Assembly: GCA_032718475.1 (NCBI GenBank)
Contig: JAUCBJ010004497.1
Location: forward strand, 1 to 64,000
Direction of reading: 5' to 3'
DNA length: 64,000 bases
Source of the DNA: Nemertoderma westbladi
Lineage: Eukaryota; Animalia; Xenacoelomorpha
Part shown: one piece after another, positions 25,301 through 58,799 of the stretch
Layout: each line of letters opens with the position of its first letter
How positions within the stretch are numbered: the stretch's first letter is position 1
Position numbers and translations under genes: made by a program
The notes under the pieces: model-generated
The model's input: the letters and a program-made list of their open reading frames with translations, nothing else
The model's database searches: none
What the model was told of the DNA's origin: nothing

Positions 25301-26345
25301 GTGCCTTCTGAATTAAATCCTTCGGATATCCCTTCTAGGGGATGTGATCTTATTAAACTTACTACAAATAGCTTTTACAAACATGGTCCATCATTCTTGC
25401 AAGAACCATAATATTTGTGGCCTTCTGAACCAACTTCCCCTCCACAACTTTTGATAACCAACTCTCAACAATTAAATTCATTTTCAGAGTGTAATTTAAT
25501 TTCCAAGCTCTCGCAACCTGTTCGGGTATTGTCCTGGATAAAGCGTTTTAGTCATAACGCCCATAACCCAAAAGATAAGATAGTGGGTAATCTTTACTAT
25601 TTTGAACTTCGTAAGTCTCTGCATTTCCTTATTCTGTTCGAGCAATATTTGTTTTTCCAATGTGAAATTAATTCCCTGAAATGTAAAATGAATGGTTCTG
25701 TATCTCCTGCTTCTTCTATTCATAAACTTCACCCTATTATTCATAATGACCTACTAGTTATGTCACCACGTACTGGCGAACCATATATAATAATATTGCC
25801 AAATCGAAGTCATTTAACGAAATTAATTGCTATGGACTACCATGCTATGGACTACATGAATTAATGCATCAAGGACCAGATGCGACATTAGCCCAAATTA
25901 GAACAAAATATTGGATTCCTGGTGGCCGTTCACTGGTGCGCCAAATGATTAATAAATGTAATGCTGTAAACGCTATCATGCTCTACCATATATGGCTCCC
26001 GAATCAGAGTTGCAACCATTTCGACGTCAAGCTATTGCTCCTTTCATAGTTTCTGGAATGGATCATTTTGGCCCTATTTATGTAACAGGAGGTGAAAAAG
26101 CACAGTGTCTTCTCTTCACATATTCCTCTACACGAGCTATACATCTAGAACTTGTTGATAATTGTTCAACTCGTGAAACATATTTAGCTATGCGGAGATT
26201 TCTTTCATTGAGAGTACCTACCTTTACTCATATAAGTGTCCATGCATGATCGTCCATGAAATTTCCAAATCACACTGTTACTCATCATTTTACACCAGCA
26301 GGCTTACCCCATTGGGGAGGCTGGTGGGAGAGAATGGTTTGTAGT
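22308..26345 (+). pseudogene. Decayed BEL/Pao LTR retrotransposon gag-pol (no LTRs seen)
   Basis: In order: LPKIAPPTFDG/KFIYLR (DUF1759-type gag), CTNC..H..C and CRYCGKRHHSLL knuckles, protease LDDGSKRTYI, RT LPNH/YRVVF/GDIEAAYHQV/YSDD, Pao RNase H CDAS/KSRAAP/RLEL/WSDS/FVANRV/NPSDIPSRG, integrase HQG/DHFGP/RAIHLE/WGGWWERMV; many stops and frameshifts. Confidence 0.93.
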
Positions 26346-30815: not shown

Positions 30816-31134
30816 CAATACAAAGTACAATAAAGCCACTACTATATTCAATATTAGTGTATACATGTATACCTACCGGTATGTAGCTGCTTAACTCCGA
30901 GGGTCTGACAGCTATTATTGGGCATTGCTCATAATCTAGTATAACACTGCGATGATGCTGCTAATATATAACAAATAATAAATAATATACGAACTGATAT
31001 CCAATATCAGCTTATGTACATGGCAAACGTAGGCAGCGAATCAAACTCGATGTAATATATAAGCCTTAGAATACCACCAACTGAATCAAGGAACCAAAAT
31101 ACCGGTACCGGTACCGGAAACCCAAACAAAAATT

Positions 31135-32100
31135 ATGCCGAAGCGAAGTGGAGAACAGAAATCAAAAGTGACAGGTAACCTCAGTAAATCGTTTTCTAAT
31201 GAAATGAATCAAATTCTAGGATTAGAGGAAAATTTAACATCTTTTGAAGACAGAATTGAGAAGATTATTATATCGAAACTAGGTGAATATACACAGGGTA
31301 TATCCAGCTCCCCGGATGAACCAAATCCAGCAAATTTATCCACGAAAGCATCTACTGCCGGGGAACCAGTCACACCGTTGTTATCGGCTAAGCAGAGAGC
31401 ATCATTGATTTCGAGTATAAAGGAAAATGTGAACTACGAGCTGGAGAAGATACGGGAATCCATCAATGAAATCAAGAATACGCTACAAAATCAACAGGAT
31501 GTTCTTAGCCGTCGACAAGATGATATTGAACAATATTCGCGAAGGAATTGTATAATTATCCATGGAGTCGCACATGAACCACGGGAAAAAACGGAAAATG
31601 ATACATGGGCCGTTGTCCAGCAATTCTTCCTACAGCAGTTGGACCTTACTGTGGAGGAATGGGAAGTAGATCGTTGCCATCGACTTACAACTACTATTCG
31701 CAAAGTTGGTTCATCTGTTCCTAGAATGTCGAAAGAAATCACTCCTCCAATTATTGTGAAATTGTGCCGCTACCGTTTCCGTGCTCGCATCTTCTCAGCT
31801 GTTCGCCGTTTGAAGGGCTCACCATTCTTTATAACAGAGTGCCTAACGAGATACCGCCAAACGATCCTAAAGAAGTCAAGGGAAATTGGGATAGCATGGT
31901 CACGAGACGGACGTATATTTGGAATTGACAAAAATGATCGTCGGTTTGAGATTTCTACTACTGAAGATACTAAGTTGATGAAAACGTTCACAAGGCAAGA
32001 GCGTCTATCAAGAAATGAGAAGCGACAGACTGCCACAGTTGTAGAATCCCCACGTTCAGAAAATGATCCAATGTTTCTAGGCTTCGCTCCTACTGAGTAA
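31135..32100 (+). CDS. LINE ORF1 (coiled-coil plus RRM-type nucleic-acid chaperone)
   Basis: Coiled-coil, then EQYSRRNCIIIHGV, VDRCHRL, PPIIVKL.RY, FITECLT..R, typical of L2/Crack/CR1-group ORF1; lies upstream of ORF2. Confidence 0.88.
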   Translation: MPKRSGEQKSKVTGNLSKSFSNEMNQILGLEENLTSFEDRIEKIIISKLGEYTQGISSSPDEPNPANLSTKASTAGEPVTPLLSAKQRASLISSIKENVNYELEKIRESINEIKNTLQNQQDVLSRRQDDIEQYSRRNCIIIHGVAHEPREKTENDTWAVVQQFFLQQLDLTVEEWEVDRCHRLTTTIRKVGSSVPRMSKEITPPIIVKLCRYRFRARIFSAVRRLKGSPFFITECLTRYRQTILKKSREIGIAWSRDGRIFGIDKNDRRFEISTTEDTKLMKTFTRQERLSRNEKRQTATVVESPRSENDPMFLGFAPTE

Positions 32101-32722
32101 TCATTTATAGTATAGCTATAGACCATGCCGGTACCGTACCGTACCGGAAGAGAAACACGTTTTGAGTTGATTTATAAGGATTTGATTCAGTTTTGTGTTA
32201 ACTTTTTTCAGTATAAAACTTTCTTTCAATTTTTCAGGAATTCATAGTTTAATGCCATGTTTCATAAACTGGTGGCACCATCCCGACCTATAATCCCCTA
32301 ACTATATTCCCATCCCTTTTTTTTTACAAACCATTTGATTGGGGATATAAAGTACATAAACAAACATACAACATATATATATATTATATATATACATGTA
32401 CTTAAATATATTGGGCAAATTTATTTGTCCAAAATCGCCGTCACCCTGCAACATTTTGTAGAGCTTGCTTTTAGTACTTTTGTTTTGCTTTTTGTTTTTG
32501 TTGTTTGGACTTTGACTCATTCAAACTGTTCTTTATAGGTATCTGTAGTTTACTTTCTTATTTAGTTAGTCTCAGTAGGAAGGCCTAATTATATTGCATG
32601 ACTTCCTATATTCAGTAGTGTAGATAAAAATCACACCTAAATTTTTCTAGTTGTAGTTGTTCCTCCTCTATACATTTTTTAGAGGGGATTTGCTTTCATC
32701 TTTAAACTGGTACCAACTTCAA

Positions 32723-35700
32723 ATGCTCGAGAAATGCCAAAAATGTACTAAAAATATAAATTCTAACAATAAGAAAGTATTACACTGTTGGATATGTAAC
32801 GCAAAATATCACGTTAAGTGTTTTTCCTTAATAAAAAAAGATATTGATTTTTTTCTTTCGAATTCACGATGGATCTGTACAAATTGTATTGTTAATATTT
32901 TTCCCTTTCAAAACATTGAAGACGATTCAGAATATTTATTATCAATTAATGACTATCGTCTACCATCCATTATAAATAGAGATCTATTAAATTCTAGTAT
33001 AGCGAACTTTTTCACCACAGATGAAAGAGATGGAAATGGAGTAGATGGACAGCTGGACCCAGACACTAATTTTTATCATAATATTAAATGCGACTACCAT
33101 TCTGATTTTTCACTTCTTAATAATTCTTCTAAATTTTCCTTTATGCACACCAATATTCGTAGTCTCAACAAGAATTTAGATAATCTCGCATACATGCTAC
33201 AATGCATATCTGAGCCCCCACGAATTATTGGCATAACTGAAACTTGGCAAAATAATCTCAATCATGATTCCTTTGCCTTAAAAAACTACGACTTTGAATA
33301 TGATTATAGAAAAAATCAAAATGGTGGTGGAACTGGTATATATATTCATAATTCGCTTAATTATATTAAGCGAAATGATCTCAATATATTCAATTCAGGC
33401 CTGTTTGAATCTACATTTATAGAATGGCAACGAGGGTCTAATAAAAATATTATATTTGGTTGCATTTATCGCCCGCCTAACTCAGATTTGGAGGAATTTC
33501 TCAAATTACTCAGTTCAACCTTAACAAAAATCAACAATGAAGGTAAAATTTGTTATCTTATGGGTGATTTCAACATAAATATACTGCATATAAACACATC
33601 ACCAATAGCGCATACATTTTTTGAAACCATATCATCTCACTGTTTTTTGCCCGTAATAAATAAGCCTACGCGAATAACAGACACGACCTCAACCGCAATA
33701 GACAACATTCTAACAAATGATTATTCAACTATTTGCGAATCAGGTATAATTATAGCAGATATATCTGACCACCTTCCTATTTTTGCAATCTGTGATATTG
33801 CGCTTAATTCCGTACCACCACCACCAAATTTCTACACTAAAAGGGACACCTCCGATTCTAATATAAATAAATTTTTGAACGCTCTTGGCAATAAATCAAA
33901 ACATAATGAATGGGAAACAATCCTGAATGAAACCGATGCAACTGAAGCGTACAACAAGTTTATATCAGAATACCAAAATTTATTTGTGCTAAACTTTCCA
34001 TTTAAACAATTTAAATTAATAAACATTGAAAAACCATGGATAACAAATTCTATTTATGCTTGTATCAAAAGGAAACAAAAATTATTTTCCTCATTCATAA
34101 AAACTAAAACGGAAGAAACAAAGACATCTTACACGAAATATAAAAATTTACTAACAACTTTAATCCGAAACTCAAAAAAACGTCATTTTTCACATCTCTT
34201 TGAAAAATTTAAATATAATATTAGTCAAACCTGGAATACTATAAAAGTACTTACTAATAGGAACAAGTCGTCTAGCTATCCATCTACTTTCCTAGTCAGG
34301 TCAAAATTGGAGGAAGATGAATATTGTATTTCAAATGCATTTAATAACCACTATGTATCTGTCGGAGAAAAACTTGCAAGTAAAATTCCAACTACAGATA
34401 GACCCGTGGCCACATTCCTGAAAAACCCAACCCTAAATTCAATGTTTTTGGATACCATTTCTGAAAATGATTTACTGAAATGTGCAATGTCTTTGAATAA
34501 TAAAAAGTCAATCGGGCTTGATGGCGTTGATCCAGTATTAGCACGGTCAGCACTTCCAAAAATTGCAACTCCCTTAACGCACATAATTAATTTATCTTTA
34601 CTCACAGGTGTTGTGCCAGACCAATTAAAATGCGCTAAAGTTGTACCAGTATTTAAAAGGGGTAATAAAAATATAATAACAAACTATCGTCCAATTAGCG
34701 TACTACCATATTTCTCAAAAATCCTTGAAAAAATTGTAAGCATACAACTCCTCGAATTTATTAAAAGAGAAAAAATATTAACCTCAAAACAGTTTGGCTT
34801 CCAAACTAAAAAATCAACTGAAACTGCGCTTTCATCTCTGTTACATGACCTTTTGACTGAAAACGAGAATAATAATATCACTGTGGGTCTGTTCCTGGAC
34901 CTCTCTAAGGCGTTTGATACTGTCAACCATAAAATATTAATTCAAAAACTCGAACACTACGGTATTCGTGGGACGCCTTTGGATTGGTTCAGGAGCTACC
35001 TAACAGATCGTCGGCAAAAAGTGCTATTTAAATCGACCCTATCAAATTCTAGTACAATAACTTGTGGCGTTCCACAAGGGTCTATTCTTGGACCGGTACT
35101 ATTTCTGATTTATATTAATGATATTACAGAATGTTCATCCATTCTAAATTTTGTTCTTTTTGCCGATGACACGAATATTTTCCACTCAGGATCTGACTTA
35201 AATATACTCATAGATCAACTTAACAGCGAATTACTTAATATATATAAATGGCTTGCAACAAATAAACTATCCCTAAATTTAGATAAAACTAAGTTTATAA
35301 TATTTTCTACTAAACAATACAGCTGGGCAAACAAACACATTTTGATTAACGGAAACTTAATCGAAAAAGTAAATGAAATGAAATTTCTTGGAATTATTAT
35401 AAGTAGTGATTTAAAATGGAACAAGCATATTCAATACATACGACTAAAAATAGCTAAAAATGTGGGAATTCTTGGTAAACTTAAACATTTCATCCCGTAC
35501 AAAATTCGCCTGACATTATACCACACACTGATCCGCCCATATCTCACATTCGCACTTACGGTATGGGGCAATGGTGCCAGTTCAAATAGTACAGCTACAA
35601 ATTCATTACTTATTTTACAAAAAAGGGCAATTCGCTACATACACTTAAAACATTCACAATACCATACAGAGGAACTCATGAAAACCCAGAACGAATTAAC

Positions 35701-35998
35701 ACTATCTAATATATATAAATATCAATGTTTACTTTTCATGTACAAATCTATTAATGGAAAACTAGATCTTCCAGAAAATTTAAAATCTATTTTAATAGTA
35801 AATCGACAGTTTCACAATTACAACACTCGTACAATGTACAATATTCATCTTCCTCTATATCGCAAATCATTAACTCAAACTGCAGTAACTTACCAAGGCC
35901 CACTATACTGGAATGACCTTCTCCCTGAAATACGCAGATCTCCTACATTAAATCAATTCAAAAATAATCTCAAGGGGGGGGGGGGGGGGGGGGGTTGA
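32723..35998 (+). CDS. LINE ORF2: PHD finger + AP endonuclease + reverse transcriptase (L2/Crack-like, CR1 group)
   Basis: First ATG at 32723; C4HC3 PHD (CQKC..CWIC..H..C..CTNC); APE motifs NIRSL, ITETW, GGTG, YRPP, GDFN, IDNI, SDHLP; RT motifs NYRPIS, QFGF, DLSKAFD, PQGSILGP, FADD, FLG; ends in a poly-G run. Confidence 0.96.
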   Translation: MLEKCQKCTKNINSNNKKVLHCWICNAKYHVKCFSLIKKDIDFFLSNSRWICTNCIVNIFPFQNIEDDSEYLLSINDYRLPSIINRDLLNSSIANFFTTDERDGNGVDGQLDPDTNFYHNIKCDYHSDFSLLNNSSKFSFMHTNIRSLNKNLDNLAYMLQCISEPPRIIGITETWQNNLNHDSFALKNYDFEYDYRKNQNGGGTGIYIHNSLNYIKRNDLNIFNSGLFESTFIEWQRGSNKNIIFGCIYRPPNSDLEEFLKLLSSTLTKINNEGKICYLMGDFNINILHINTSPIAHTFFETISSHCFLPVINKPTRITDTTSTAIDNILTNDYSTICESGIIIADISDHLPIFAICDIALNSVPPPPNFYTKRDTSDSNINKFLNALGNKSKHNEWETILNETDATEAYNKFISEYQNLFVLNFPFKQFKLINIEKPWITNSIYACIKRKQKLFSSFIKTKTEETKTSYTKYKNLLTTLIRNSKKRHFSHLFEKFKYNISQTWNTIKVLTNRNKSSSYPSTFLVRSKLEEDEYCISNAFNNHYVSVGEKLASKIPTTDRPVATFLKNPTLNSMFLDTISENDLLKCAMSLNNKKSIGLDGVDPVLARSALPKIATPLTHIINLSLLTGVVPDQLKCAKVVPVFKRGNKNIITNYRPISVLPYFSKILEKIVSIQLLEFIKREKILTSKQFGFQTKKSTETALSSLLHDLLTENENNNITVGLFLDLSKAFDTVNHKILIQKLEHYGIRGTPLDWFRSYLTDRRQKVLFKSTLSNSSTITCGVPQGSILGPVLFLIYINDITECSSILNFVLFADDTNIFHSGSDLNILIDQLNSELLNIYKWLATNKLSLNLDKTKFIIFSTKQYSWANKHILINGNLIEKVNEMKFLGIIISSDLKWNKHIQYIRLKIAKNVGILGKLKHFIPYKIRLTLYHTLIRPYLTFALTVWGNGASSNSTATNSLLILQKRAIRYIHLKHSQYHTEELMKTQNELTLSNIYKYQCLLFMYKSINGKLDLPENLKSILIVNRQFHNYNTRTMYNIHLPLYRKSLTQTAVTYQGPLYWNDLLPEIRRSPTLNQFKNNLKGGGGGGG

Positions 35999-36164: not shown

Positions 36165-36239
36165 GAACTTGGGAGAAACGAAATTGCGACAACTATGGAG
36201 AATCGGGAAGCCTGGAAGGATCTCATTTCCACTGTCCGA
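36165..36239 (+). mobile_element. 3' end fragment of an RTE-type LINE, split by the BEL/Pao insertion (continues at 49089-49114)
   Basis: Joined across the TSD it reads ...MENREAWKDLISTVRVRST* followed by a (TAG)n tail at 49101-49114. Confidence 0.65.
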
Positions 36240-36757
36240 TGTGACGGGATCTACGGATCCCGGTTTATCCGTTGGGTTTTCTATCCACGCGTCCCCGCCG
36301 TTGTGTGAAAGGTAAAATAGTTCTGGTGTCCGGTTATATGTATAAGGTATAATAGTCTGATATATATATAGTATAGTATGCACAATAGGTAATATAAGTA
36401 TGATGGCGGTAGCGGACGGTGACAGAAGTCCCCGTTCCACCCTACTGATCTGACTGAGTAAACTGAATGAATGATTACAGGTTACCGGTTATATTGCACG
36501 GTGGCCTTACTGCTACTCAATCGATGCCATTCCCCCCTCTGATTGGTTATACCCTTGTTGGCGCCCCGTGGAGTATTCCCGTTCACTCCACCTGTTCTCT
36601 CTGGGTTAGGGGTTTGGCCCCTGACCCTCTATTGTGTGCTTCCTTCCCACTCTTATTGGGATGGCACGAGTTGGTTAATTGCCCAATCTCGTGGCTCCCA
36701 ATATTGCTTATCGGCTAATAACTTTATGGGGTGTTGGCGGGATTGAATAAGCTAACA
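36240..36757 (-). repeat. 3' LTR (518 bp)
   Basis: TGTGACGGG...AAGCTAACA; polypurine tract (minus strand ATGGGGGGGAG) adjacent at 36758-36768. Confidence 0.95.
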
Positions 36758-37466
36758 CTCCCCCCCATGCTATCTTCCCGGTAAGAAGATAGCATCAACC
36801 AAAAAAGTGCGCTACAATCCCGCTGGATCCCGATCTAGTATCGGGTGTGGGGTGGAATTCTTTTCTCTTGGAGCCGGCTTTCCAGGCCGCCCCCTATGGG
36901 TATGATAACGCTACCCTGTGTGCCTGGCGTCTCATGTCGGGCCGATCGCGCTCACCTCTTCACGCGATTTTTGTTTCCCCAACACTTTCGCCCTACCTCC
37001 CCTCTACTCTCACCCTAACTCTCTCATACCCCCGGACCTCCTCGTCCCTCACTCAGCCTCTTATTCTCCCCCCCCCCACACTAGAATTGCGCTCGCACTC
37101 TCTCCGCACTTCACACTCTTATTCCGATTCTCAAGTCCACTTTGACTGTTTTATCTCTCCTGACGAACCTCCCCCCCCTCTCGTGCCGCCGCACTCAAGA
37201 AGTGTGAAATTGTCAGTTGTCTCGTCCATAGTGCCATAGTCAATTGTCCCCCAGTCCCAGTAGCTAATTGAGAAAGGTTGTATGACTATAGTACTTACTC
37301 CAAACGTATGTATTTTACTGCTAATCACTACGTACGTACATACGAATTGCACTTATATGGTTATTTGCATTAATTAAATTTATACTTAATAGTTCGTACG
37401 TTACATGCGGCGCCTTCCAGGCGCACCACGTCCCAGTCTCAGTCTCATTCCCTCGCCTCCGGGAAC

Positions 37467-40010
37467 TTATCTGTACCTCCTCACGTCCTCCTCCCTGGCC
37501 CGTTTCTTGGTTATCACCGCTCCTCTGGCATCATCCGCTTTCTGCTTCCGGACCTTTGCCGCCACTTCCTTGCTGATCCCGGTCGTCGGCTCCTTGGGCG
37601 CTGGTGTTATTAAAGCCCGATACCGCTTCGCCGGTGGCCCCTCAGAATGGCCTGGTTGTTTCCCTCGTGTGGCGTCCCATAGGATCATCTTCATTGCCTT
37701 TGGTACGTGTTCCGCCAAGAAATCCCTAAACTCCCTCCGGTTCTCTGGTGTCCACCTGTCCAGGTACCGTTGCGTGTTCATAACTCCGGCGAACGATGCC
37801 GCCGTAGCTACCTCTTGATAGGTAAACGGTAACCTTCGCTTTATGATTTCCATGTGGGTCTCCTGGTTTATGAGGAAGAAACCCCACTTGAACTCTTGGG
37901 CCTTCATGCGCTGGCGCGTCATGGCCCCGACGTCGGCCCACTCCTCGAACCTCGTGAACTTCTCCTCGTCGCTCATCCAGTCGCACTCGCGCCCGTAGTG
38001 TCCCCGAAAGTGGCACTTTGGACATCGGTTATGCAACCGTGGACACGCCCCCATCCTGTGACTTGGTTCTCTACAATAGAGACAAAAGGTTCCCCGTTGG
38101 AACCGGTATAGGCAGCTGCTTTCCTGATGGGTCTGTCTCCCACAGTAGTCGCAGCCGAGTACCAATGTCTCGCGTCCCACCTCGTCCTTCGTCCCAAGCG
38201 ATCTCCGCGGTCTATGGAGTCGCTGGTAGGCAAACTTCTCCACGTTGCTCTCCCTGTTTACGTCGATCTCTCCGCCCCTCTCGGGCATCGTCTCCCCGAA
38301 TACTATCCGTGGTGCCGTCCCCGGTTGCTCGCCCAACCTGATGGTGCTCCCCGCGAAATCCATCGCCGGCCCCTCGTGCACCCAGGTCCGCTTGCCGGAT
38401 CTGTTCCAGAAGGCCCTCGCCCCACTGGCCGTCACCACCCTTCCGCCAACCCAGTCCGTGTCCGAGTGGCCTATCCTTTCGATGGGCGGCATCTCTCCGA
38501 ACTCGTCGTCGTCGTCCTCCTCTTCTGGTAGTGTCTCCAATCCCGGTATCCCGATGGATCCACTATGTCCCTTCCCGCCTTGGCTCTCGCCCGTAGCTCT
38601 CCATCCCTCTAGCTCCCTTAACTTCCTTGGCGGTTGGTCGCCCTCGGCGCCCGCTGGTATGGGCATCGCGTGCAACCCCGACGTCGACTGTTTCGGCGAT
38701 CCCACCGTCCATCCCAATTCTCGCCCTAGAGACTCCCCCGAACTCCCCGACGAAGTCCAATGAAGTTCGTCTAGGCCCGCCTGTTCCTCGAAGCCGTAAC
38801 TCTGTGCCCTGGCCTCCTCTTCCCTCTCCTCTGCTTCTATCCTCTCCCGTCTAGCGACTTCTTCCAGTCGCTTTGCTTCCCGTCTATCCATCTCTAGCTG
38901 CTCCCATCTCTGATACGGTGTATCCGTCTCCCCATCTACCAGATGTCGGCTGTTGTAGTACACCGACTCGCCCTTCAGCCCCGGGTGGTCTACCAGACCG
39001 TCAAAGGCCGTCTTAAAGGCTCTCCTGTAGCTTAGGGGTGATCCCGATAACAGAAATGCCCCTGGTTCTCTTTCGATAACTACGGTCATGAATAAGTTAA
39101 GTAAACTTATCATCATCCAGTCCTCCTGCAGGATATATCGCTTCTGATATACCTTTATCGCTCCTCTGCGAAACTGATATACCTCCTGCTTTCCCGGTCT
39201 CGCTCCCCACTTCAGCGAGTTCGCTAGTTCTGCTCCGTATTCTTCCCTAAACTTCCCCCAATCCATTGGTTTGTGGCATACGAGCCCCAATAATTGGCCC
39301 ATCGCCACCGCCCCGCATTGGCCTGAGTTCTCGACCACCCCCAATCCATCCGGTGCCGTCATAGCCATAAAGACTTTCTGCATATCCAGGAGGTTGGTGG
39401 CGTCCGGACCGATGATCCTCTCCGCGTCCTCGCGAATCGCCGATCCCACTTTCGTCGTCGACTTCTCTCTTACTAAGACCTGTACCGCTTTCGGCAGTCG
39501 GTCTAATTTCGGCCCGTCCTTCTTCCCATACGTCCCTAGGTCGAATAAGAAGATGTCCCCATTTGGCGCTGCCAAATGCAAGAGTATGGTCCTGGCCGAC
39601 CCTGCCGTTCCTCGTCTCGAACCCGCTTCGTCTTCCACGGTTCCCTCGTCATCTAGGATCATATATCCTCCTCTGTTGACGGACTCTATGAATCTTTTCC
39701 AGTCCTTCCTCGGCGATTCCCTCGGATACTTCGGAATCCCGAACTTCGCCTCGTCTCCTTTCACCACGTAGTGGAAGTGTTGGAAGATCGCGTTGTCCAG
39801 CGACGGCGTCCCGTAGGTCCCGACCAACCGCTGTTCGTGCGCCTCCCGGAAGTGATCCTGCAGCGCTCGTGCCGCGTGACCCCTTTCCAACCTCTCGTAG
39901 TATCCTCTCGTCTTCTCCTCCGGGTGTCTTTCGGTGAAATCCACCAATATTTCTTTTCCTCCTGACTCCGCCTTTCTCTTCCTGATCAGCTTACTCGCCA
40001 TTCCGAACAC
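37467..40010 (-). CDS. Extra retrotransposon ORF: RNase D/WRN-like DEDDy-type 3'-5' exonuclease + 3 CCHC zinc knuckles
   Basis: Intact 847-codon ORF (first ATG at 40001); ExoI ILDDEG, LHLAAPNGDIFLFD, ExoII KVGSAIRED, LLDMQ, ExoIII-like YILQED; knuckles CDYCGRQTHQESSC, CLYCREPSHRMGAC, CPKCHFRGHYGREC; homologous to 59503-63228. Confidence 0.82.
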   Translation of the reverse strand: MFGMASKLIRKRKAESGGKEILVDFTERHPEEKTRGYYERLERGHAARALQDHFREAHEQRLVGTYGTPSLDNAIFQHFHYVVKGDEAKFGIPKYPRESPRKDWKRFIESVNRGGYMILDDEGTVEDEAGSRRGTAGSARTILLHLAAPNGDIFLFDLGTYGKKDGPKLDRLPKAVQVLVREKSTTKVGSAIREDAERIIGPDATNLLDMQKVFMAMTAPDGLGVVENSGQCGAVAMGQLLGLVCHKPMDWGKFREEYGAELANSLKWGARPGKQEVYQFRRGAIKVYQKRYILQEDWMMISLLNLFMTVVIEREPGAFLLSGSPLSYRRAFKTAFDGLVDHPGLKGESVYYNSRHLVDGETDTPYQRWEQLEMDRREAKRLEEVARRERIEAEEREEEARAQSYGFEEQAGLDELHWTSSGSSGESLGRELGWTVGSPKQSTSGLHAMPIPAGAEGDQPPRKLRELEGWRATGESQGGKGHSGSIGIPGLETLPEEEDDDDEFGEMPPIERIGHSDTDWVGGRVVTASGARAFWNRSGKRTWVHEGPAMDFAGSTIRLGEQPGTAPRIVFGETMPERGGEIDVNRESNVEKFAYQRLHRPRRSLGTKDEVGRETLVLGCDYCGRQTHQESSCLYRFQRGTFCLYCREPSHRMGACPRLHNRCPKCHFRGHYGRECDWMSDEEKFTRFEEWADVGAMTRQRMKAQEFKWGFFLINQETHMEIIKRRLPFTYQEVATAASFAGVMNTQRYLDRWTPENRREFRDFLAEHVPKAMKMILWDATRGKQPGHSEGPPAKRYRALITPAPKEPTTGISKEVAAKVRKQKADDARGAVITKKRAREEDVRRYR

Positions 40011-40504
40011 TACACTCGCTCACCTGTAGGGTGGTGCCTTACCAAGGCGCAATACAGATGAGTGATGTATTAAGATGTTTCGATACAGTTCGATAATGGC
40101 CTACTTTTCTACTTAACTGCGCCTTTCAAGCTTAATTTAATCTAATTAATTTCGGAGCTAGTAAATCAGCCTAATTTACAATTTCCGTCCGTTACTTTTA
40201 TTATGTTCTAGAACGACTTTCTTTGTGTTACCACTATTTTCCGATTTTAGCCCTATTCTATTTATTTGTTTATTTTGCTTTGATTCTACTGTCCTACTAC
40301 TTACTACTGCCTATGGATTTATTCTATTCTCTCTCTGATCCATATTCTGGCCTACTCAGTGGGCCTATGCAGTACAGCAGTATGCGTCGTGTGGCCACAC
40401 GATTTATCCAGCTGCACTCATATGCCCCCCTCTCGCTACTAACTCTACTTACTGCTAACTAATATCTATATCCTATTTACCCCTTTTACCTCTTACTCTC
40501 TCTC

Positions 40505-41210
40505 TCTAACTAATGGTACTACGTACCCTCTAACTCTAACTCTGACTAGGTACCACGTACCTACTAACTCTAACTCTAACTAGGTACTACGTACCTACTA
40601 ACTCTCTAACTATTGGTACTACGTACCCTCTAACTCTAACTCTAACTAGGTACTACGTACCTACTAACTCTAACTCTATCGGTACTACCTACCCTCTAAC
40701 TCTAACTCTGACTAGGTATTACGTACCTACTAACTCTAACTATCGGTACTACGTACCCTCTAACTCTAACTCTAACTAGGTACTATGTACCTACTAACTC
40801 TCTAACTATCGGTACTACGTACCCTCTAACTCTAACTCTAACTAGGTACTACGTACCTACTAACTCTCTAACTATCGGTACTACGTACCCTCTAGCTCTA
40901 ACTCTAACTAGGTACTACGTACCTACTAACTCTCTAACTATCGGTACTACGTACCCTCTAACTCTAACTAACTATTGGTACTACGTACCTACTAACTCTC
41001 TAACTATCGGTACTACGTACCCTCTAACTCTAACTAACTATTGGTACTACGTACCTACTAACTCTCTAACTATCGGTACTACGTACCCTCTAACTCTAAC
41101 TAGGTACTACGTACCTACTAACTAACTAATTTTAGGTACTACGTACCTACTAACTAACTAACTAACTAACTCTAGGTACTACGTACCTACTAACTAACTG
41201 ACTAACTCTT
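40505..41210. repeat. Internal tandem array of GGTACTACGTACC mini-hairpins spaced by (CTAACT)n
   Basis: About 20 copies between the pol end and the extra ORF. Confidence 0.92.
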
Positions 41211-41316
41211 ATTTTTATTTTATTTTATTTTATTTTGTGTGGGAAGGGCGTCTCGCCCTCAATCCCACCCCCCTCAGTCCAAAACTTGGACGACTAAACT
41301 CCACACTAACTCCGCT

Positions 41317-42617
41317 CTAAGGTGCTCCTTCTAAGAGACAGCATTTACCTACCGCCCTCCTGTAGGTTTTTCTGTCCTTCGCACCTATCTTTCCACCTAT
41401 CCGCACTTCCACCGATCGGACTCTTCCGTCCTCGTCGGAGTAGGTGCCTACAACTCTCGCCAACCGCCACTGGTTGTTGATGATAGTATCATCCGTGACG
41501 ATTACGAGATCTCCCTCTCTTAACTCCCTGTTCGGTTTCCTCCACTTGCTTCGCTTATGGAGTGTGGGTAGGTATTCCTCTACCCACCTTCTCCAATACT
41601 CTGCGCTAATTGCTTTAGCTACTTTCCAACTTTGGCGGGAGTGTATATCATCTGGGTCTACACCCCGCATATCGATGGTAGCTGGCCTTTCCATCAGGAA
41701 ATGGCTAGGCGTCAACACGTCTAATGACTCAGGGTCATCATTCTCCGGGTATAGCGGTCTGCTATTAATGATCCCCTCGCACTTCGCAAGTACTGTCCGT
41801 AAGACGTCTTCAGTGCCATGTGGGTGTTCATCAGCTTCGTCATTAGACGTTTTGAACTGCCCACGAGTCTCTCGACGCATCCTAACGTATGTGGTGCATA
41901 CGGCGTCCTTCTCTCCCACTTCACTTGTCGTCTTCTCATGGCCGCTCTGACTTCTTCTCCCTCCAAGATGTCTAAGGCCTCTGCCATCTCACTCTCTGCG
42001 CCCACAAAATTGGTGCCGTTGTCGCTATATATCACCGCGATCGTCCCACCTTTGCGGTCCCTAAACCTTTCTAAGGCGTTAATGAACGCTGATGCGGTTG
42101 CATCTTGGGCGAGTTCTATCCCTACCGCCCGCGTATTGTTGCATACGAAGATAATGCCGTAACGCTTCTCCGTGTGTCGCATCACTTTGATCTTTATCGG
42201 CCCGAACATGTCCACACCGCAGTGCGTGAATGGCGGGTCGTGCTGTCTTACCCTACTCGCCGGTAGTGGCGCCATCTCCTGTACGGCTCGTTCCTTCTTC
42301 GCTCGCCGGCAGGTCTGGCACTGCCCCACTACCGCTTTAACCTTCTTCCTTAGTTGTTTGACCCAATAGGTCCTCCTTATCTCTGTGAGGGTTCGGTTGG
42401 TGCCCCCATGCAGTATCGATTTGTGGGAGTCCCATATGATCTGGTGGACTATAGGCGATCCTGTGGGAATGATGATGGGTTTCGGTGGCACGACTATACT
42501 GTTGTTATATCCCACCCTAGAATTCATTACTAGAATCCCATCCTCGTTGAGTTGTGGCGACAGCGTGATCAACTCGCTATCCCGTCGGAGGTGCTGTTGG
42601 TTACCGACGCGTTCCAC
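41317..42617 (-). pseudogene. BEL/Pao integrase plus DUF5641-type C-terminus (5'-truncated pol, one frameshift near 41830)
   Basis: H..HGG..CQTC zinc finger, PFTHCGVDMFGP, SDNGTNFVGA, GCVERLV, INSRPL, LTPSHFL, WRRWVEEYL, WRLARV, DGRVRSV, KCCLLEGAP*. Confidence 0.94.
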
Positions 42618-43135
42618 TGTGACGGGATCTACGGATCCCGGTTTATCCGTTTGGGTTTTCTATCCACGCGTCCCCGCCGTGTGTGAAAGGTAAAAGAGTT
42701 CTGATGTTGGGTAATATGTATAAAGGTATAATAGTCTGACAGTTGATATAATATAGTATGACACAACAGGTAATATATAATGGCGGTAGCGGACGGTGAC
42801 AGAAGTCCCCGTTCCACCCTACTGATCTGACTGAGTAAACTGAATGAATGATTACAGGTTACTGGTTATATTGCACGGTGGCCTTATTGCTACTCATTCG
42901 ATGCCTTTCCCCCCTCTGATTGGTTGATACCCCTGTTGGCACCCTTTGGAGTGTTTCCGTTCACTCCACCTGTTCTCTCTGGGTTAGGGGTTTGGCCCCT
43001 GACCCTCTATTGTGTGCTTCCTTCCCACTCTTATTGGGATGGCACGAGTTGGTTAATTGCCCAATCTCGTGGCTCCCAATATTGCTTATCGGCTTACAAC
43101 TTTATGGGGTGTTGGCGGGATTGAATAAGCTAACA
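42618..43135 (-). repeat. Middle LTR (518 bp)
   Basis: Same TG...CA sequence as the outer LTRs; PPT and a 3' UTR copy adjacent (43136-~43480 resembles 36758-~37100). Confidence 0.95.
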
Positions 43136-43549
43136 CTCCCCCCCATGCTATCTTCCCGGTAAGAAGATAGCATCAACCAAAAAAAGTGCGTTACAATCCC
43201 GCTGGATCCCGATCTAGTATCGGGTGTGGGGTGGGTATATTTTTTCTCGGAGTCGGCTTTCCAGGCCGCTCCCTATGGGTATGATGTCACTACCCTCTGG
43301 CGTCTCGTGTCGGGCCGATCGTGCGCTTCTCTCACACAATTTTTGTTTCCCCAACACTCTCACCACTCTAACTCCGCTCTCTTCTCTTGCTCTAACTCTT
43401 GGACTTCCCTGTCCCTCACTCTTCCTCTCACTTCTCCTCCCCCACACTTGAATTGCGCCCACATTCTCTTCGCACTCCACACTATCACCTCTCCACTCTC
43501 TTGTCACTCCCTAAGGCTTTAATCTCTAATGCTACCCCTGTGCTATCAT

Positions 43550-44965
43550 ACTATCTACCTACTGCTTACTAACTCTAACTATCTAACTAACTCTGCTAAC
43601 TACTAACTCTTACTACTTCTAGCTCTAACTGAGAGCCTCTAACTTTCTACTGACTCTAACTCTCTACTAAGTCTAACTAACTCCTACTAGCTCTCCACTT
43701 CTACTAACTCTACTTGACTCCTCTGAGTCTACCAACTCTGCTAACTAGCTCTACTAACTCTACTCCACTAGCTCTGCTAACTCTACTCCACTAGCTCTGC
43801 TAACTCTACTAACTAGCTCTACTAACTCTACTCCACTCTTCTAACTACGTGGCGCTTGCGGTGCCCACAACCACTCTACTATATGGCACCCTATGTGCCC
43901 TCTCTGCTCTACTCTACCACCTGGCACCCTATGTGCCCTCTCTACTACACTACTACCTCTCTAACTCTACTACCTGGCACCCTATGTGCCCTCTCTACTA
44001 CTCTACTCTATCTCTAACTCTACTACCTGGCACCCTACGTGCCCGTCTCTACTCTTCTACTCACTGGTACCCTATGTACCCTCTCTACTACCTCTAACAC
44101 TCTACTCTACTACCTGGCACCCTATGTGCCCTCTCTACTCTTCTACTTCCTGGCACCCAATGTGCCCGTCTCTACTCCTCTACTCCCCCTTTACGTCTCA
44201 TCGCCTACACGTGACGCTCTGAGTGCCGGCAGAGTGGGTACGTTAATTATGTGAACTACTACTGACTCTACTAACTCTACTAACTCTCTTCTAACTCTAC
44301 TAACTCTTTTTGTGCCCGGCACCTCTTGTGCCCGGCATCTTCTAACTCTACTAACTCTCTACTAACTCTTTTTGTGCCCGGCACCTCTTGTGCCCGGCAC
44401 CCACCCTAATTAACATACCCTGCTCTTACATCAAACACGTCATCACGCCCGTGCCCCACTAAGTTCAGCGCATTCCCTACTAACTCTAGCTACATGTAGC
44501 TTACGGTGCCCACAACCCTCTACTGCTACTACTAACACCCCTAACTAGCGGTACTACGTACCCTCTTACTACTCTAGCTCTCTCTACTAGCTAGCGGTAC
44601 AACGTACCCTCTTACTACTCTAGCTCTCTCTACTAGCTAGCGGTACTACGTACCCTCTTACTCTTACTAACTCTCTAACGGTACTACGTACCCCTTAACT
44701 CTTACTCTCTAACGGTACTACGTACCCTCTAACTCTTACTCTAACTAGCGGTACTTACGTACCCTCTAACTCTAACTCTAACTAGGTACTACGTACCTAC
44801 TAACTCTCTAACTATCGGTACTACGTACCCTCTAACTCTAACTCTAACTAGGTACTACGTACCTACTAACTCTCTAACTATCGGTACTACACGTACCCTC
44901 CTACTAACTCTTCTACTAACGGTACTACGTACCACCCTTTAACTAACTAACTAACTAACTAACTC
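43550..44965. repeat. Internal low-complexity repeats: (CTACTAACT)n, GGCACCCTATGTGCC hairpins, and a second GGTACTACGTACC array (44548-44965)
   Basis: Directly visible tandem motifs. Confidence 0.88.
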
Positions 44966-45016
44966 TTACTACCTAACTTCTACCTACTCTATTATTTAAT
45001 TATTTTCTTATTTTAA

Positions 45017-48000
45017 TTAAATAATTATTTTATATTTTGTGCGTGGGAAGGGCGTCTCGCCCTCATTCCCACCCCCCTCAGTCCAAAACTTTGGACGACT
45101 AAAAACTCTCAGGTGCCCCTTCTTCCAGTAGGCACTCTCCTGCTGCCCTCCTATACGTCCTCTAACTCTTCGCCACACTCTCTTCGGTGCTACCTTTGCT
45201 GGCCTCCCCCTTCGTATGTGCGCTGGCATTAAGGCCCTCGACGACCCCCGCTCGTCCCTCGGTATACGCGGTGTCTGCCCGTGCAATGCCCCCTCGCACT
45301 GTGTCAGCCGTGCGTGTGTATGCAACACGCCTCCTTCTACTATCCCGACTCCCTTATGTTTGCTAATGGGCTTCTCTGCCCCTGGTTTAGTCCTTTCATA
45401 TCCTCTCTCTTTCCAACACTCTCCGGATCTGTGTCCTTTTACCACACATCGATGACATAGTCCGTTTGCGTCTGTGTAGGCTACACGATCTCGTTTGGGC
45501 AACGCTTGCCAGTACTTGCAACTCCTGGTCTTATGGGTTCCGTCCCGATGTAATTGACATTGGAATCCTGGATTATAGCGTTTCCTGTATAGTCCTTCAC
45601 GTATCGCGCTTAGGTTTATATGTACCGATTTAATGTTTTGGTTGTCTAGACTCGGCCTACTGGGTATATTGGGATTGTGTTTATTTTTGGTGTTATTTTC
45701 TTCCTGTCCCTGCCACGGTGTGGCCCTACTACCAGCTAACTGTGGACTGGTAGTCCCCTGTACGGCCGCGTGTGGTGGTGACTGTCCGCACGACCTGCTC
45801 TCGTCCAGGGAGTTCGATGTTCTTGCTCCTATCGGGGTATATTGTCGATATTGTGATGGGGGAATGTCACCCTGTCCCCCCCCGGCCGGTATGTTTGGTA
45901 CTGGGGTTGATGTTAATACATTGGGGCCCATACGTCTATCTCCAATAACTCCCCCCTCCCCTGGATATATATTATGTCCCTGTGTATTATAGTCATGCTG
46001 CTGTACCGATATAGGCCTACCTACCTCTCGCCTACCTACCGGTATGTACTCCGCGACTTCCGGGTTTAATTCCGTCGTTCGCGCTACCCCATCGCTTACT
46101 CTATCTCTCCCAGCATGGCCTATAATAGTATGTGCAGTAAGGCCTACAGTATGTCCTGCAGTCTGCATGTGCCCTTCCGAACCGAAGCTTATTCTTCGCG
46201 AATCTCGAATCTCCCCGCGACTACTGCACTCTCGATCGGCAGCTATATCCCGTCGGGAAGCTTCTCTTCGATCCCCTCTCCTGTTCTCGACTTTGTATTG
46301 GTACCTCCTGTACCCCTCTCTTGGCGTGCAGTGCGTTTCTCCGGGGCGACGGCAATCTCCCGAAGTTCGACCCCACTGGCTCCCTGACTCCATCTCTACT
46401 GTCGACGGTCCGTTATCCGTCCTCGCACTGCTATCGTTCGTGGCGACACTTCTTCTACTATCTTCTCTTCTTCTCTTTTCTGTGTAGTATTCCGGCTCGT
46501 GAGATCTCTCGTCGACCTCCCGGTTAAACTCCACTCTTCCTCCTCCCTCTTCTAATCGGGCTCGACGCTTCGTCTGCCCTCTCGCGACGTCAACCTGCCT
46601 CTCTCTACTCGATCGCACGCCGCTGGGGATACTCGCAATCCCCCTATTACTCTCCGTCGCCGGGTGTTGCGGTTTACCTGATTCGGCCCGCGCATTATCC
46701 GCTGACGGCTGTGGGACACTCTCTGCCCCCCCTCTCTCTCTACTAGTCTCTCGCGGTGGGGTGCCCGTAGCCCCCCCCCACCCGCCACTTCTAACTTCAC
46801 TATTTCTTACTACACTTCTATACCCCTCTTGTGGGGCATTCTCTGCCCCCCCCTCTCTCGCCACTAATCTTCTGTGGTGGGGCGCCCGTAGCCCCCCCCC
46901 ACCCGCCACATCTAACTTCAATATCTCTTACTTCGTCTCTACACCCCTCTCTAGTCGACACACTATCTCTACTACGGCTGGGTCTATTCACCCCCGCCTC
47001 TCTCTCTACTACTGCGTGGCCTACCAGGCCCACCCCGGGTTGGCTCAACCGCGCCACTTCCTGCCTACTAACTACGTGGCCTACCAGGCCGCCGTCTGCC
47101 GGGTTCACATTAATAGCACCATTCCCAATATTATTTGTTAAATTAATTAAATTATTAGAACCATTAGAATTTGAAACGGGATTATTATTTAAATTATTTA
47201 AGTTAGAATTATTATTATTTTCAAAATTTAAATTGCTATTCGAATTATTTGAATTATTTTGATTATTCTGAATATTTGAATTAATATTATTATTTGAATT
47301 TAAACTTAAATTACTACTACCGGGTAAAATATTTCCTGTAATAAAGGGATTAGGGTTATCTACTACGGTACTATTAATACCAATATTTCCTAACGCACTA
47401 CTACTACCCCCCACGCCCGTACGGTTACTGTATCTACTGTACGTGTACCGCACGCTCTGTTCTCTTGCCTCACGCTCTTCGCGTTCACTCTCTTGCTCCT
47501 TCCTTCCCCTCAGTCACCACTCTAATTCTTCCATTTTTAATTTATATGCCATGCGTTCACTCTCTCGCACCCGTCTTTCTTTTGCGGAGGATGTAGCAGA
47601 CTTATAGGTTGCGACGGACTCCCGCCGCCCCTCCGTCCTACTAACTTTCCCCCGCTCTCCGGGGTTCTCGCTGACCAACGAGACCGAATCCTCGGAGCTA
47701 ACCTCGGATTCGCCCTCGTGCGGTCCCGCCCAACCCACTAACTTAACTTCCCTGGCATCGACTAAGTATGGCCCTATGTACACTACACCAGGCCCCATAC
47801 CCCTACGTTCCCATAGCCCAAACAGTTCGAAGGCAACCCCTCTCGCTCTCTCCTCGGCCAGTTCTCCCTGCCCAGAACGCACTAGGTAATCAAAGTATCT
47901 GTTCGACTCTCCTAGTCGTCTCCTCAACTTCACCTGGTCTATCTCAGCCCCTCCTCTAGCTTCCTTCAGTTGCTCCCGGGTCGCGGCGTAGGCTCGTCGG

Positions 48001-48401
48001 AGCCGGACGACCCCGACGTCCTCGTCGTCGACATCTCCTCTCTCCCTCCGGGTTCGGCGTCGTACCGTCGGCCCCACCGTTGCCGTTCCGGTGGGCCGTC
48101 CGTCGCCCTCGGCCTCTCGCTGGCCGGCGACATCGGCATATCGACCGCCGCCCTGTGTCGACTCGTCTCTCTCCTCTCCTCCCTTCTCGTCTCCTTCCCT
48201 CGACTCGCTCTCCGGTTGTAGACGACCCCCCACATCTTGGTTCGCCGGGTTGCTCGTTGTCGACGTGGCGTCAACCTGCGTCGACGTGGTCGGCGTAGCA
48301 TCGACCGGCGTCATGGGTTCGTATCGTCTCGCCGTGGCCTCGCGGATCGTTAGATCGTCGTCCGGGGTCCGCGGCGGTGTCGTTCCCCTCTCTCGACTCA
48401 T
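45017..48401 (-). pseudogene. gag-like region of the BEL/Pao element (three ORF pieces), joined to a remnant of the pol C-terminus
   Basis: ORFs 48401-47514, 47453-46818 (Asn-rich) and 46921-45017 with knuckles CQLHRDGTHKTRSC and LCHRCVVKGHRSGEC; CLLEEGAP remnant at ~45107-45135 matches the pol end CCLLEGAP at 41317-41345. Confidence 0.72.
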
Positions 48402-48565
48402 CGTCGTCTTTGGTGGCTGGCAGCCACAGTCTGTCAGTTGGTTAGATCTAGTTCTATCACTGTCAGACTGTTAGGGCAGCTGCTAGGATTCTATCTCTGT
48501 CAGGGCAGCTGGGCGGATCTAGTTCTGTCACTGTCAGGGCAGCTGGGCGGATCTGATTCTGTCAC

Positions 48566-49083
48566 TGTGACGGGATCTACGGATCCCGGTTTATCCGTTG
48601 GGTTTTCTATCCACGCGTCCCCGCCGTTGTGTGAAAGGTAAAATAGTTCTGGTGTCCGGTTATATGTATAAGGTATAATAGTCTGATATATATATAGTAT
48701 AGTATGCACAATAGGTAATATAAGTATGATGGCGGTAGCGGACGGTGACAGAAGTCCCCGTTCCACCCTACTGATCTGACTGAGTAAACTGAATGAATGA
48801 TTACAGGTTACCGGTTATATTGCACGGTGGCCTTATTGCTACTCAATCGATGCCTTTCCCCCCTCTGATTGGTTGATATCCTTGTTGGCACCCTTTGGAG
48901 TGTTTCCCTTCACTCCCTGTGTTCTCTCTCGGTTAGGGGTTTGGCCCCTGACCCCTATTGTGTGCTTCCTTCCCACTCTTATTGGGATGGCACGAGTTGG
49001 TTAATTGCCCAATCTCGTGGCTCCCAATATTGCTTATCGGCTTATAACTTTATGGGGTGTTAGCGGAATTGGATAAGCTAACA
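48566..49083 (-). repeat. 5' LTR (518 bp)
   Basis: TG...CA, followed on the + strand by TSD TCCGA; upstream of gag on the minus strand. Confidence 0.95.
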
Positions 49084-50202
49084 TCCGAGTTCGCTCGACT
49101 TAGTAGTAGTAGTATATCCGCCATTGACGTACTGTTGTTATGTAAAAGGTAGACCTAATCACACCAGATACTAATTAAAATAATGTCTTAATAACTAATT
49201 ATATTCATTCATACAATAAGCAATGTAGCCAATTAAGGCTGTGATTGACAAATTAACCGCACAATTAATTAATTGACAAAACAAAAATCAAACTAGTAGA
49301 GATCATATCCAAACCTGTATAAATATAAATAAACGCAACGATATAACTAACCCATGTACGTATACTATATTAACTGTAGAGAGGGATACTGTCCCTCCTG
49401 CGAAAAGCAAAATATATTTATCAGTATTTTAATTAATGTAACTTAAAGAAATTGAGCCTTATTCGAATAAATTTTACATGGGCATTTTGGACCTATACCG
49501 CCACTGCTTGGCTCTTTGGAAGTGTATTTCCGTAAAGCTCTATTGTATGGCTCTAGACCAACCCAAAGCAACATAAGTATGTGAACACAGAATTCCATTC
49601 CCCATTCATTTCAATGGTAGCCAACTTGTCTTTCTTGTATTGGGGGTAGACCACTGGTTAGCTTTCTGCTATTGTGTTATTCAAAGATAGCGGCAGGAAT
49701 AAAGAGAAATACCGACCTCACTAATGGGCTGTTCCTTCAGGTCAGCTTAAGTTACAGTGTGAATGTTCAAGGGCGCCGCCAGTGGCCAGTCCACTCTGTC
49801 GTTATTGTGGCTTTATGAATGGAGTTCCTTTAGTAGTTTCAAACGCTTTCATTCTATCTGCGTGCAAGAAGATGGGAGTTGAGTTGGGGTTGCGGTTGAG
49901 TGTGGGTGGAGTGATTGACAGGTTGTTGGAAGTTGTCTGATTCTGTTTGAAACTGTCTGAATCTGTTTGAAACTGTCTGAATCTGTTTGAAGTTGTTGGA
50001 CTGTTGGAGTTTGTCTGAAAGTGTTTGAAGCTGTTGGATCCGATCGGTTCAGATCGGATCCGATGGCACTCTGTTGGTGAGCTGGACTGTATATTTGCCT
50101 ATTATATAGATATTTATATGATTTTCTAAGTGTATAATACAAAATCCCAATATTTTATCAACTCTTAGGTAAAATACGATAGGAAAAACATACGAAATTG
50201 TT

Positions 50203-56540: not shown

Positions 56541-57342
56541 ATAGTATGCAGCAAAATTAGCCCGTGAGAAAGCTACGCCCGCATCAAATCTTCGCCTTCA
56601 AAATGACCAACTATCATCCGGCTGAAACTTTGCCCGCGGGCAATCATCGCCCATGAGCAAACATCGCCCACTAAACAATGATTTTTTGGTTAGAAAAAGC
56701 CGTCTCTAATTGAAGAGACAGCAACAATACCTGCAATATCCTACTGTAAAGTTTGTGAATCAAATCATAAATCCGACCTTCTCACCAAAACAGTAAACTC
56801 TAAGTAAGCGAATATATTGCAGTATCGATCTCTTATAACCGGTGAGGCAGAAAACAGTCTACGAGCAGACAAACTTCGATAAAACAAATCCCGCGCAGCG
56901 AATCCTAAAATCAGGCTGACTCACTGACGGACTAAGGGGCTCGTATACTTTGCCGCGGTGTGATTTATATGGTTGGGCAAAGGGACGCTAGCTAGGTATA
57001 GAGCAGATTTGGAGATGTCTAACTAGCGGGCAAAGCACAGTACGGACAAAAGTTAATTTTATATATTTTGAGGTGTAAATAATTTCTAACGCGCGTGTGT
57101 TAATTCTGAACGGTCAAAACAGTTTTGCTCCTTCACATATATAATTACTGGGTACGGTGTGCATTTTACGAATATTCTAATTTTGCAACTTGTAGGTCCA
57201 ATACTCACGAATGATAAGGTTCCTTCCCCTCTTGCGTATTTCCAGGACTCAAATTCAGGCATAAGGTTAATGCTACGCCCAGAATTCGGCAATTTTAGGT
57301 ACCAGGTCCCTGATACTAAGAAGAGATGTGTTAGTTTACTAC

Positions 57343-58330: not shown

Positions 58331-58401
58331 CAGACAAATGCAATTAATTTGTAGCGGTTAATTTAAATGAGTTGAAATTCTGCACAAAAAATAATTCGCA
58401 C

Positions 58402-58472
58402 TTACTAGGATTCGAACTCGATACCTACTACACATATAATTTCCAACGCTCTACCAACTGAGCTACTGAACC
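58402..58472 (-). ncRNA. tRNA-derived Pol III-type sequence (pseudo-tRNA/SINE head)
   Basis: GGTTCAGTAGCTCAGTTGGTAGAGCG (A box/D arm) ... GAGTTCGAATCC (B box), followed by a T6 run at 58386-58391; acceptor and anticodon stems do not pair well. Confidence 0.6.
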
Positions 58473-58799
58473 ACTTGACCGATAGATGCACAAATGATAG
58501 GACCAATACGAATGAGAACTCAAAGCAATCTTTACAAAGTTAATCCGAATAAAATAAAATTTTGAAAATCCACGGCATTTAGGGAATATAATTCTATACC
58601 GCTCCATGAAAACAGGATATTATCGTGCATAAAATATACGGTTTTCACCAATAATCAATCAAACTATAGAATACTTAGGGCGTACTTACATATTTACAAT
58701 TAAGTTTCAAACAATACTTCCTTTCTACGTAATGATTCGATACAAAATTAATTACAAATTCAAACTTTACGTATTTAAGGCTTTACTAAGTAAGTACAA

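Follow-up and report, generated by a model that had tools for sequence, protein, structure and literature searches.

An intact exonuclease-zinc knuckle gene in a BEL/Pao-type retrotransposon of Nemertoderma westbladi and its possible role in trimming the element's own RNA

What would a BEL/Pao-type retrotransposon do with a nuclease gene in the position of env? This question is raised by a 64,000-nt stretch of the genome of the xenacoelomorph Nemertoderma westbladi (assembly GCA_032718475.1, contig JAUCBJ010004497.1, positions 1 to 64,000 of the forward strand; hereafter the window), in which an insertion on the minus strand carries, between its integrase and its 3' long terminal repeat (LTR), an open reading frame (ORF3) combining an exonuclease-like domain with three zinc knuckles. 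We found that ORF3 is an intact accessory gene of a multi-copy BEL/Pao-type retrotransposon, and that its variation among copies is biased towards synonymous changes.

The reading frame is uninterrupted between stops on the minus strand (37467-40019) and encodes 844 amino acids from the first ATG (40001) or, as counted in the initial annotation of this locus, 847 codons from a GTG at 40010, with the stop at 37467. Variant contigs from three of the four sequencing runs have a 1-nt gap at nt 40012, so the frame 5' of the ATG is apparently not maintained and the ATG at 40001 is the likely start codon, giving an intact gene at 37467-40001 by ORF scan and translation. A candidate splice acceptor (40024-40036, minus strand) lies 22 nt 5' of this ATG, and ORF3, which has no introns itself, would then be expressed from spliced RNA. 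The motifs ILDDEG (ExoI, starting at 39659), GDIFLFD (39560) and KVGSAIRED (ExoII, 39452) as well as three CX2CX4HX4C knuckles are present where the initial annotation had placed them; the proposed ExoIII motif YILQED is also there (39137), but its catalytic acid aligns to E293 and not to D294. According to the family profile, the model and the alignment, a DEDDy/RNase D-like domain covers approximately residues 70-350 (38952-39794, minus strand) and contains D117 (39653), E119 (39647), D192 (39428), Y289 and E293. The knuckles, identified by pattern and alignment, occupy residues 617-673 (37983-38153, minus strand; individually 38153-38112, 38084-38043 and 38024-37983), with a predicted local distance difference test score (pLDDT) of 84-95 over residues 641-680. 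C-terminal to them, the family alignment and the model indicate a helical extension (residues 678-778; 37668-37970, minus strand), which is assigned to no Pfam family and has G692, T695 and G707 conserved among relatives. ORF3 has no transmembrane segment, the maximum 19-residue hydropathy being 1.3 and located on the ExoIII helix, and its N-terminus is basic and polar, unlike an env-type signal peptide or membrane anchor, in agreement with the earlier description.

The nuclease domain is hardly visible to single-sequence methods. Such searches returned nothing for it from Pfam, PHROGs or PDB sequences, and a 5.8-billion word-index search with the ORF3 protein, the nuclease domain or the alignment gave no match to it. 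Pfam likewise detected no HRDC domain in ORF3. The expected Pfam domain of DNA_pol_A_exo1 type (PF01612) was not matched by ORF3 at the curated cut-off, and four of 28 family members gave sub-threshold hits (best E 6e-5); the ESM Atlas indicated PF01612-like clusters for ORF3 at 0.94. A profile of 28 family sequences (A1) matched EXD2 (E 5e-10), the Trypanosoma brucei RNase D, TbRND (2e-7, through both domains), WRN (2e-5) and Egalitarian (6e-4), and also LIN28 through the knuckles. Folding from the single sequence was useless (pLDDT 32); the AlphaFold2 model was built on the same 28-sequence alignment. Most of its nuclease core and knuckles has a pLDDT of 80-95, the knuckle and helical part is modelled with confidence, and the stretch between this part and the core is disordered. 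The rows shown for this model by Foldseek and VIA belong to nucleases of the DnaQ type, with Z reaching 13.8. Egalitarian heads the Foldseek list; in VIA the top scores (Z 12-14 over ~180-215 residues) go to NrnC/diDNase, Nibbler, TbRND, WRN, RRP6 and the exonuclease domains of polymerases. Of the catalytic residues, D117 and E119 map to a strand, D192 to a helix, and Y289 and E293 to a long helix, as expected. The catalytic set D-E-D-Y-E is complete, with E293 replacing the usual D of the ExoIII Y-x3-D; among 27 relatives this column has D in 13 and E in nine, and all four catalytic acids are retained in 16. ORF3 is thus predicted to be a DEDDy/DnaQ-like 3'-5' exonuclease, and the DnaQ/RNase D-type assignment made at the outset agrees with both profile and fold, whose scores (E 5e-10 with EXD2, Z 12-14) speak against a chance resemblance.

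The variation among copies is a strong indication that ORF3 is under purifying selection. The DNA runs contain thousands of variant contigs covering the element, whose summed depths do not equal copy numbers. Among the best-supported variant sites (the best 40 of 1353 and the best 40 of 416), 26 of the 30 in ORF3 are synonymous against an expected 22-33%, and so are 16 of the 18 in the integrase, which served as a control. Because these sites are linked and pre-selected, they give a strong indication of the purifying selection that had been proposed as a check, and not a formal ratio of non-synonymous to synonymous substitution rates (dN/dS). The listed small indels all lie outside ORF3, and internal ORF3 deletions in rare contigs show that decayed copies exist. 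Run X5, which is RNA only by guess, shows no difference in coverage between coding and non-coding parts, with a depth below 6 in most bins, and is uninformative on transcription.

The assignment of the host element to the BEL/Pao type is made from its integrase and is well supported. The integrase fragment (H2C2, rve and DUF5641 in Pfam; 41317-42617, minus strand) is frameshifted near 41.8 kb and starts directly 3' of an internal LTR. It matches DUF5641, which we take to be a BEL/Pao marker, with E 2e-25, and shares 34% identity with the corresponding region (E 2e-5) of a BEL copy at 22.5-26.2 kb that bears DUF1759 and Peptidase_A17; the domains and this match together point to BEL/Pao. A two-LTR element had been assumed, but self-comparison and alignment revealed three 518-bp LTRs, all on the minus strand and bounded by TGT...ACA: LTR1 at the 5' end (48566-49083), the internal LTR2 (42618-43135, polypurine tract at 43136-43157) and LTR3 at the 3' end (36240-36757, polypurine tract at 36758-36779). 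A single 5-bp target-site duplication (49084-49088 left of LTR1, 36235-36239 right of LTR3) encloses the entire 12.8-kb three-LTR unit (36235-49088); the empty-site joint across it occurs in contigs of three of the four runs, possibly from paralogous sites, as the flank is repeated. LTR1 and LTR3 differ at 19 positions, all within positions 12-248 (U3), and are identical over 249-518, which suggests that the insertion is a young, recombinant cDNA.

Downstream of LTR1 there is a broken gag-like region of three open pieces with knuckle motifs (45017-48470, minus strand; ORF and domain scans), which ends in a remnant of the integrase C-terminus (45111-45173). It is followed by the repeat array of this first unit (43567-44964), LTR2, the integrase fragment, a second tandem-repeat array (40500-41207), ORF3 and LTR3, and the mapping of LTRs, arrays and domains upholds the initial placement of ORF3 between the integrase end with its array and the polypurine tract of the 3' LTR. 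ORF3 had further been described as intact beside broken gag and pol, which is true of ORF3 and gag, but pol is mostly absent: Pfam detected no protease, reverse transcriptase or RNase H in the open pieces scanned, and this copy is hence non-autonomous. Contigs extending past the upstream edge of the integrase into letters other than LTR2 (14, 4 and 1 in three runs, two of them from one sample) indicate that other copies have a different neighbour there, likely a longer pol. Two Cys/His motifs were found in the broken gag region, compared with the triple Cys-His box of BEL Gag (PMC554778); a derivation of the ORF3 knuckles as a copy of that box was ruled out, since their pattern is unlike it.

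Relatives of ORF3 are widespread. A phmmer search over 1.84 billion proteins (E <= 0.001) gave 75 matches, reduced to 74 when a spurious repeat protein (P0043) was dropped, and the N-terminal nuclease domain is also present in 31 of these; 12 of the 31 were seeds of the N-terminal profile, and 39 of the 74 are shorter than 500 residues, many of them probably fragments. The nearest relatives are less than 30% identical to ORF3. Those looked up (30) are unnamed or 'hypothetical' and come from contigs of 2.5-31 kb in ENA, JGI, NCBI and Logan, and no loci of database relatives were found in the metagenome, viral and prokaryote collections. As judged from sequence, the predicted exonuclease-knuckle fusion is a broad unannotated family of at least 31 divergent proteins overlooked by Pfam. 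The only invariant columns of the A1 alignment are knuckle cysteines. Loss of ExoI clusters in two subgroups of relatives, in which P0032, P0040, P0060, P0064, P0067 and P0068 keep the fold and the knuckles and are candidate pseudo-nucleases.

A second member of the family was found by tblastn with these relatives at 59503-63228 (minus strand), outside the BEL/Pao element. This intact ORF of 1241 amino acids carries both domains, D-E-D-Y-E and three knuckles, and aligns to ORF3 with an hhalign probability of 99.3 (E 2e-20) at 24-26% identity; its N-terminal part of ~430 residues is of no recognised kind. No LTR or integrase was seen near it in 56.5-64 kb, of which just 770 bp lie upstream inside the window, and the exonuclease-knuckle module is therefore not confined to the BEL/Pao element. 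A 23-nt direct repeat occurs around this ORF at 58893, 59461, 62436 and 63582. The fusion had been regarded as peculiar in the initial annotation, a view that no longer holds given this wide family, the second member without an LTR in view and the same design in TbRND, as described in the available text of PMC7797062.

The region behind LTR1 is unusual for a BEL/Pao element, for which the ICTV profile gives an 18-nt primer site for tRNA-Arg/Gly (PMC8742986). No TGG-type tRNA primer site is present 3' of LTR1; ARAGORN called no tRNA, and Rfam called no family at the gathering score in 35-64 kb. A half-molecule of tRNA-Asp was also considered as primer, of which presumably only ~7 nt would match. 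At the primer-site position, a pairing search identified a leader (48518-48565, minus strand) complementary to LTR positions 292-339. The corresponding segment of LTR1 (48745-48792, minus strand), a candidate self-primer, starts at the first TCAGT initiator-like motif, 27 nt past TATAA. This leader repeats the predicted RNA 5' end imperfectly and in inverted orientation, is part of a 34-nt unit tandemly repeated ~3.6 times, and can pair through its first 9 nt with LTR positions 331-339. Over its first 48 nt, the duplex with LTR 292-339 has -43.4 kcal/mol, the best among 2558 element windows and also, allowing a 2-nt shift, among the 471 windows of the LTR, and none of 150 shuffles reached this value with the whole LTR searched. 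The polarity of the pairing is that of a self-primer, given a transcript start predicted from TATAA/TCAGT. Among the proposed functions, such a self-complementary primer site would somewhat favour one in which the element trims its own RNA, compared with small-RNA degradation or proofreading of cDNA.

We tentatively favour, as a possible rather than a probable role, that ORF3 is an RNA-binding exoribonuclease trimming the 3' ends of the element's own RNA. The protein would be made from the spliced RNA, its knuckles may bind RNA and pass the 3' end to the active site by analogy with TbRND, and the enzyme would halt at a duplex. The substrate, the least certain step, may be element RNA with added tails or with a tail behind the self-primer paired with the leader. 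A more far-reaching version, which seems quite unlikely to us, is that a tRNA-independent BEL/Pao lineage prepares its own primer with its own nuclease, one of many mobile exonuclease-knuckle genes in a wide pool that lacks annotation: the R segment and the leader would anneal over ~48 nt, the exonuclease, guided by its knuckles, would trim the unpaired 3' tail to the duplex edge, and the resulting 3'-OH, precisely at the LTR boundary, would be used by reverse transcriptase. Several observations weigh against trimming of the element's own RNA. The first unit of the insertion shares the same LTR and lacks ORF3, no LTR is visible for the second member of the family, and the linkage of ORF3 to the integrase is seen in this copy alone, with no listed contig spanning both. 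Moreover, folding of the 5' end pairs the final 9 nt of the candidate primer with U5 in preference to the primer site (P 0.013). At least one catalytic acid is missing from the alignment in 11 of the 27 relatives (two of these being incomplete sequences), indicating that the fold can persist without catalysis, and since DNA exonuclease domains lie within ~1 Z of RNA ones, the fold does not determine the substrate.

The main rival explanation, somewhat unlikely in our view, is a counter-silencing nuclease that would shorten or destroy PIWI-interacting RNAs (piRNAs), small interfering RNAs or their precursors from the host. Nibbler, EXD1 and Egalitarian are among the close folds, and the ORF3 family is very high-copy in the DNA runs, both of which speak for this explanation; however, mature piRNAs carry a 2'-O-methyl group at their 3' end, an obstacle to exonucleases of this kind. 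A job independent of replication mode would also fit the different context of the second member and the DEDDy ORFs of bdelloid rotifers, which are common to unrelated retroelement classes according to the available part of PMC5408684, but the ORF3-bearing families described there are still covered by small RNAs and have no clear gain in copy number. ORF3 could also be a non-catalytic RNA adaptor or a second nucleocapsid-like chaperone, like Egalitarian or EXD1, that helps to export, localise or package the RNA of the element. The restriction of invariance to knuckle cysteines, the loss of ExoI in whole subgroups and the first place of Egalitarian in the Foldseek list are consistent with this idea, which we nonetheless consider unlikely, because ORF3 and the second member in the window both retain D-E-D-Y-E at ~25% identity, and this argues for selection on catalysis.

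A DNA exonuclease that proofreads cDNA or trims its ends or flaps during reverse transcription is doubtful to a still greater degree. The exonuclease domains of WRN, Pol I and the apicoplast polymerase match the ORF3 model in VIA at Z 11.8-13.2, and the element is long and recombination-prone, but ORF3 is separate and unfused to the reverse transcriptase, and its CCHC array resembles those of RNA binders (LIN28, TbRND, CNBP-like). Finally, the stand-alone-looking member 20 kb away might suggest a recently captured host gene or a neutral passenger. This seems highly improbable, as ORF3 has no introns, its variation is mostly synonymous across many copies, and its relatives are unnamed and distant.

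DEDDy ORF3s in rotifer LTR elements and an exonuclease-knuckle fusion in TbRND are known already, and the present case extends the former to BEL/Pao. The rotifer genes were described in Juno1/2, Vesta2/5 and Athena/Terminon elements with their function left open, as far as the consulted portion of PMC5408684 goes, and are cited again in sections of PMC5718144, PMC6338049 and PMC6431247; the precedent invoked in the initial annotation is thereby upheld. Like them, ORF3 is a separate ORF 3' of pol in the env position, with an RNase D-like DEDDy fold, retained catalytic residues, no transmembrane segment and an occurrence in unrelated elements. Unlike the rotifer elements as described in these texts, the host here has a BEL/Pao-type integrase and ORF3 possesses in addition a conserved helical domain and three CCHC knuckles, and the motif is DEED in the rotifer genes but has E as its last acid here. 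TbRND (PDB 7c45) likewise has a DEDDy domain followed by an array of CCHC knuckles (Z 12.9), and its CCHC domain is required for RNA binding, raises 3'-5' cleavage and selects uridines, according to the passages available from PMC7797062. It differs in being a cellular enzyme of the mitochondrion, in which the linker has 28 residues and the knuckles number four, whereas ORF3 has three knuckles after a mostly disordered linker of ~260 residues and is ~15% identical. EXD2, WRN exonuclease, Nibbler/Mut-7, EXD1, Egalitarian and NrnC share the fold and the ExoI/II/III order, but these are host genes, 10-16% identical in structural alignment, and none is detectably the source of ORF3.

The LTRs, polypurine tract, gag-like region, BEL-like integrase and third gene after pol agree with the ICTV profile of Belpaoviridae (PMC8742986), in which third genes are env-like only, in contrast to the nuclease gene here, and unlike that profile this copy is devoid of a tRNA site, protease, reverse transcriptase and RNase H. 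The lack of a tRNA site and the complementarity, in priming polarity, of the sequence after the 5' LTR to the predicted RNA start resemble self-priming in Tf1/Sushi as outlined in the accessible text of PMC6317226, but the element is of BEL/Pao and not of Ty3/gypsy or copia type, and the pairing extends over ~48 nt, of which the 9 nt at the priming end match perfectly. No exonuclease ORF or exonuclease-knuckle fusion in BEL/Pao was found in the literature searched, with older nematode Cer papers, Repbase and Dfam outside its scope, and the nematode Cer (BEL) elements may have an extra gene resembling RNase D; by term look-up, 'exonuclease' occurs 0 times in the text covered of PMC3118150, PMC13524379 and PMC2774666.

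Several other repeats surround the insertion. The BEL copy matched by the integrase (22568-26201, plus strand; DUF1759, Peptidase_A17 and an integrase remnant) is old, decayed and unrelated. A piggyBac-like transposase (DDE_Tnp_1_7) lies in two frames at 12697-14504 (plus strand), and a CR1/L2-type long interspersed nuclear element at 31063-35998 (plus strand) has a long open endonuclease-reverse transcriptase frame with an N-terminal PHD-like finger and ends in a poly(G) run adjoining the flank of the LTR insertion. Satellites of 76 bp (36.6 copies) and of 21 bp (AT-rich) occupy 53757-56541 and 5176-7785, respectively. A tRNA-like sequence recognised by eye at 58400-58480 (minus strand), uncalled by ARAGORN or Rfam, is possibly the head of a short interspersed nuclear element.

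The role of retrotransposon DEDDy ORFs was left open by the rotifer study (PMC5408684), and the present case extends these genes to BEL/Pao, adding indications of purifying selection and a predicted RNA-binding module whose cellular analogue, TbRND, has a solved structure. It also offers an assayable substrate in the 3'-tailed duplex that R and leader of the element would form. If the proposed activity is true, ORF3 would represent a new route to a reverse-transcription primer, or an enzyme encoded by a transposon that acts on small RNAs or RNA tails.

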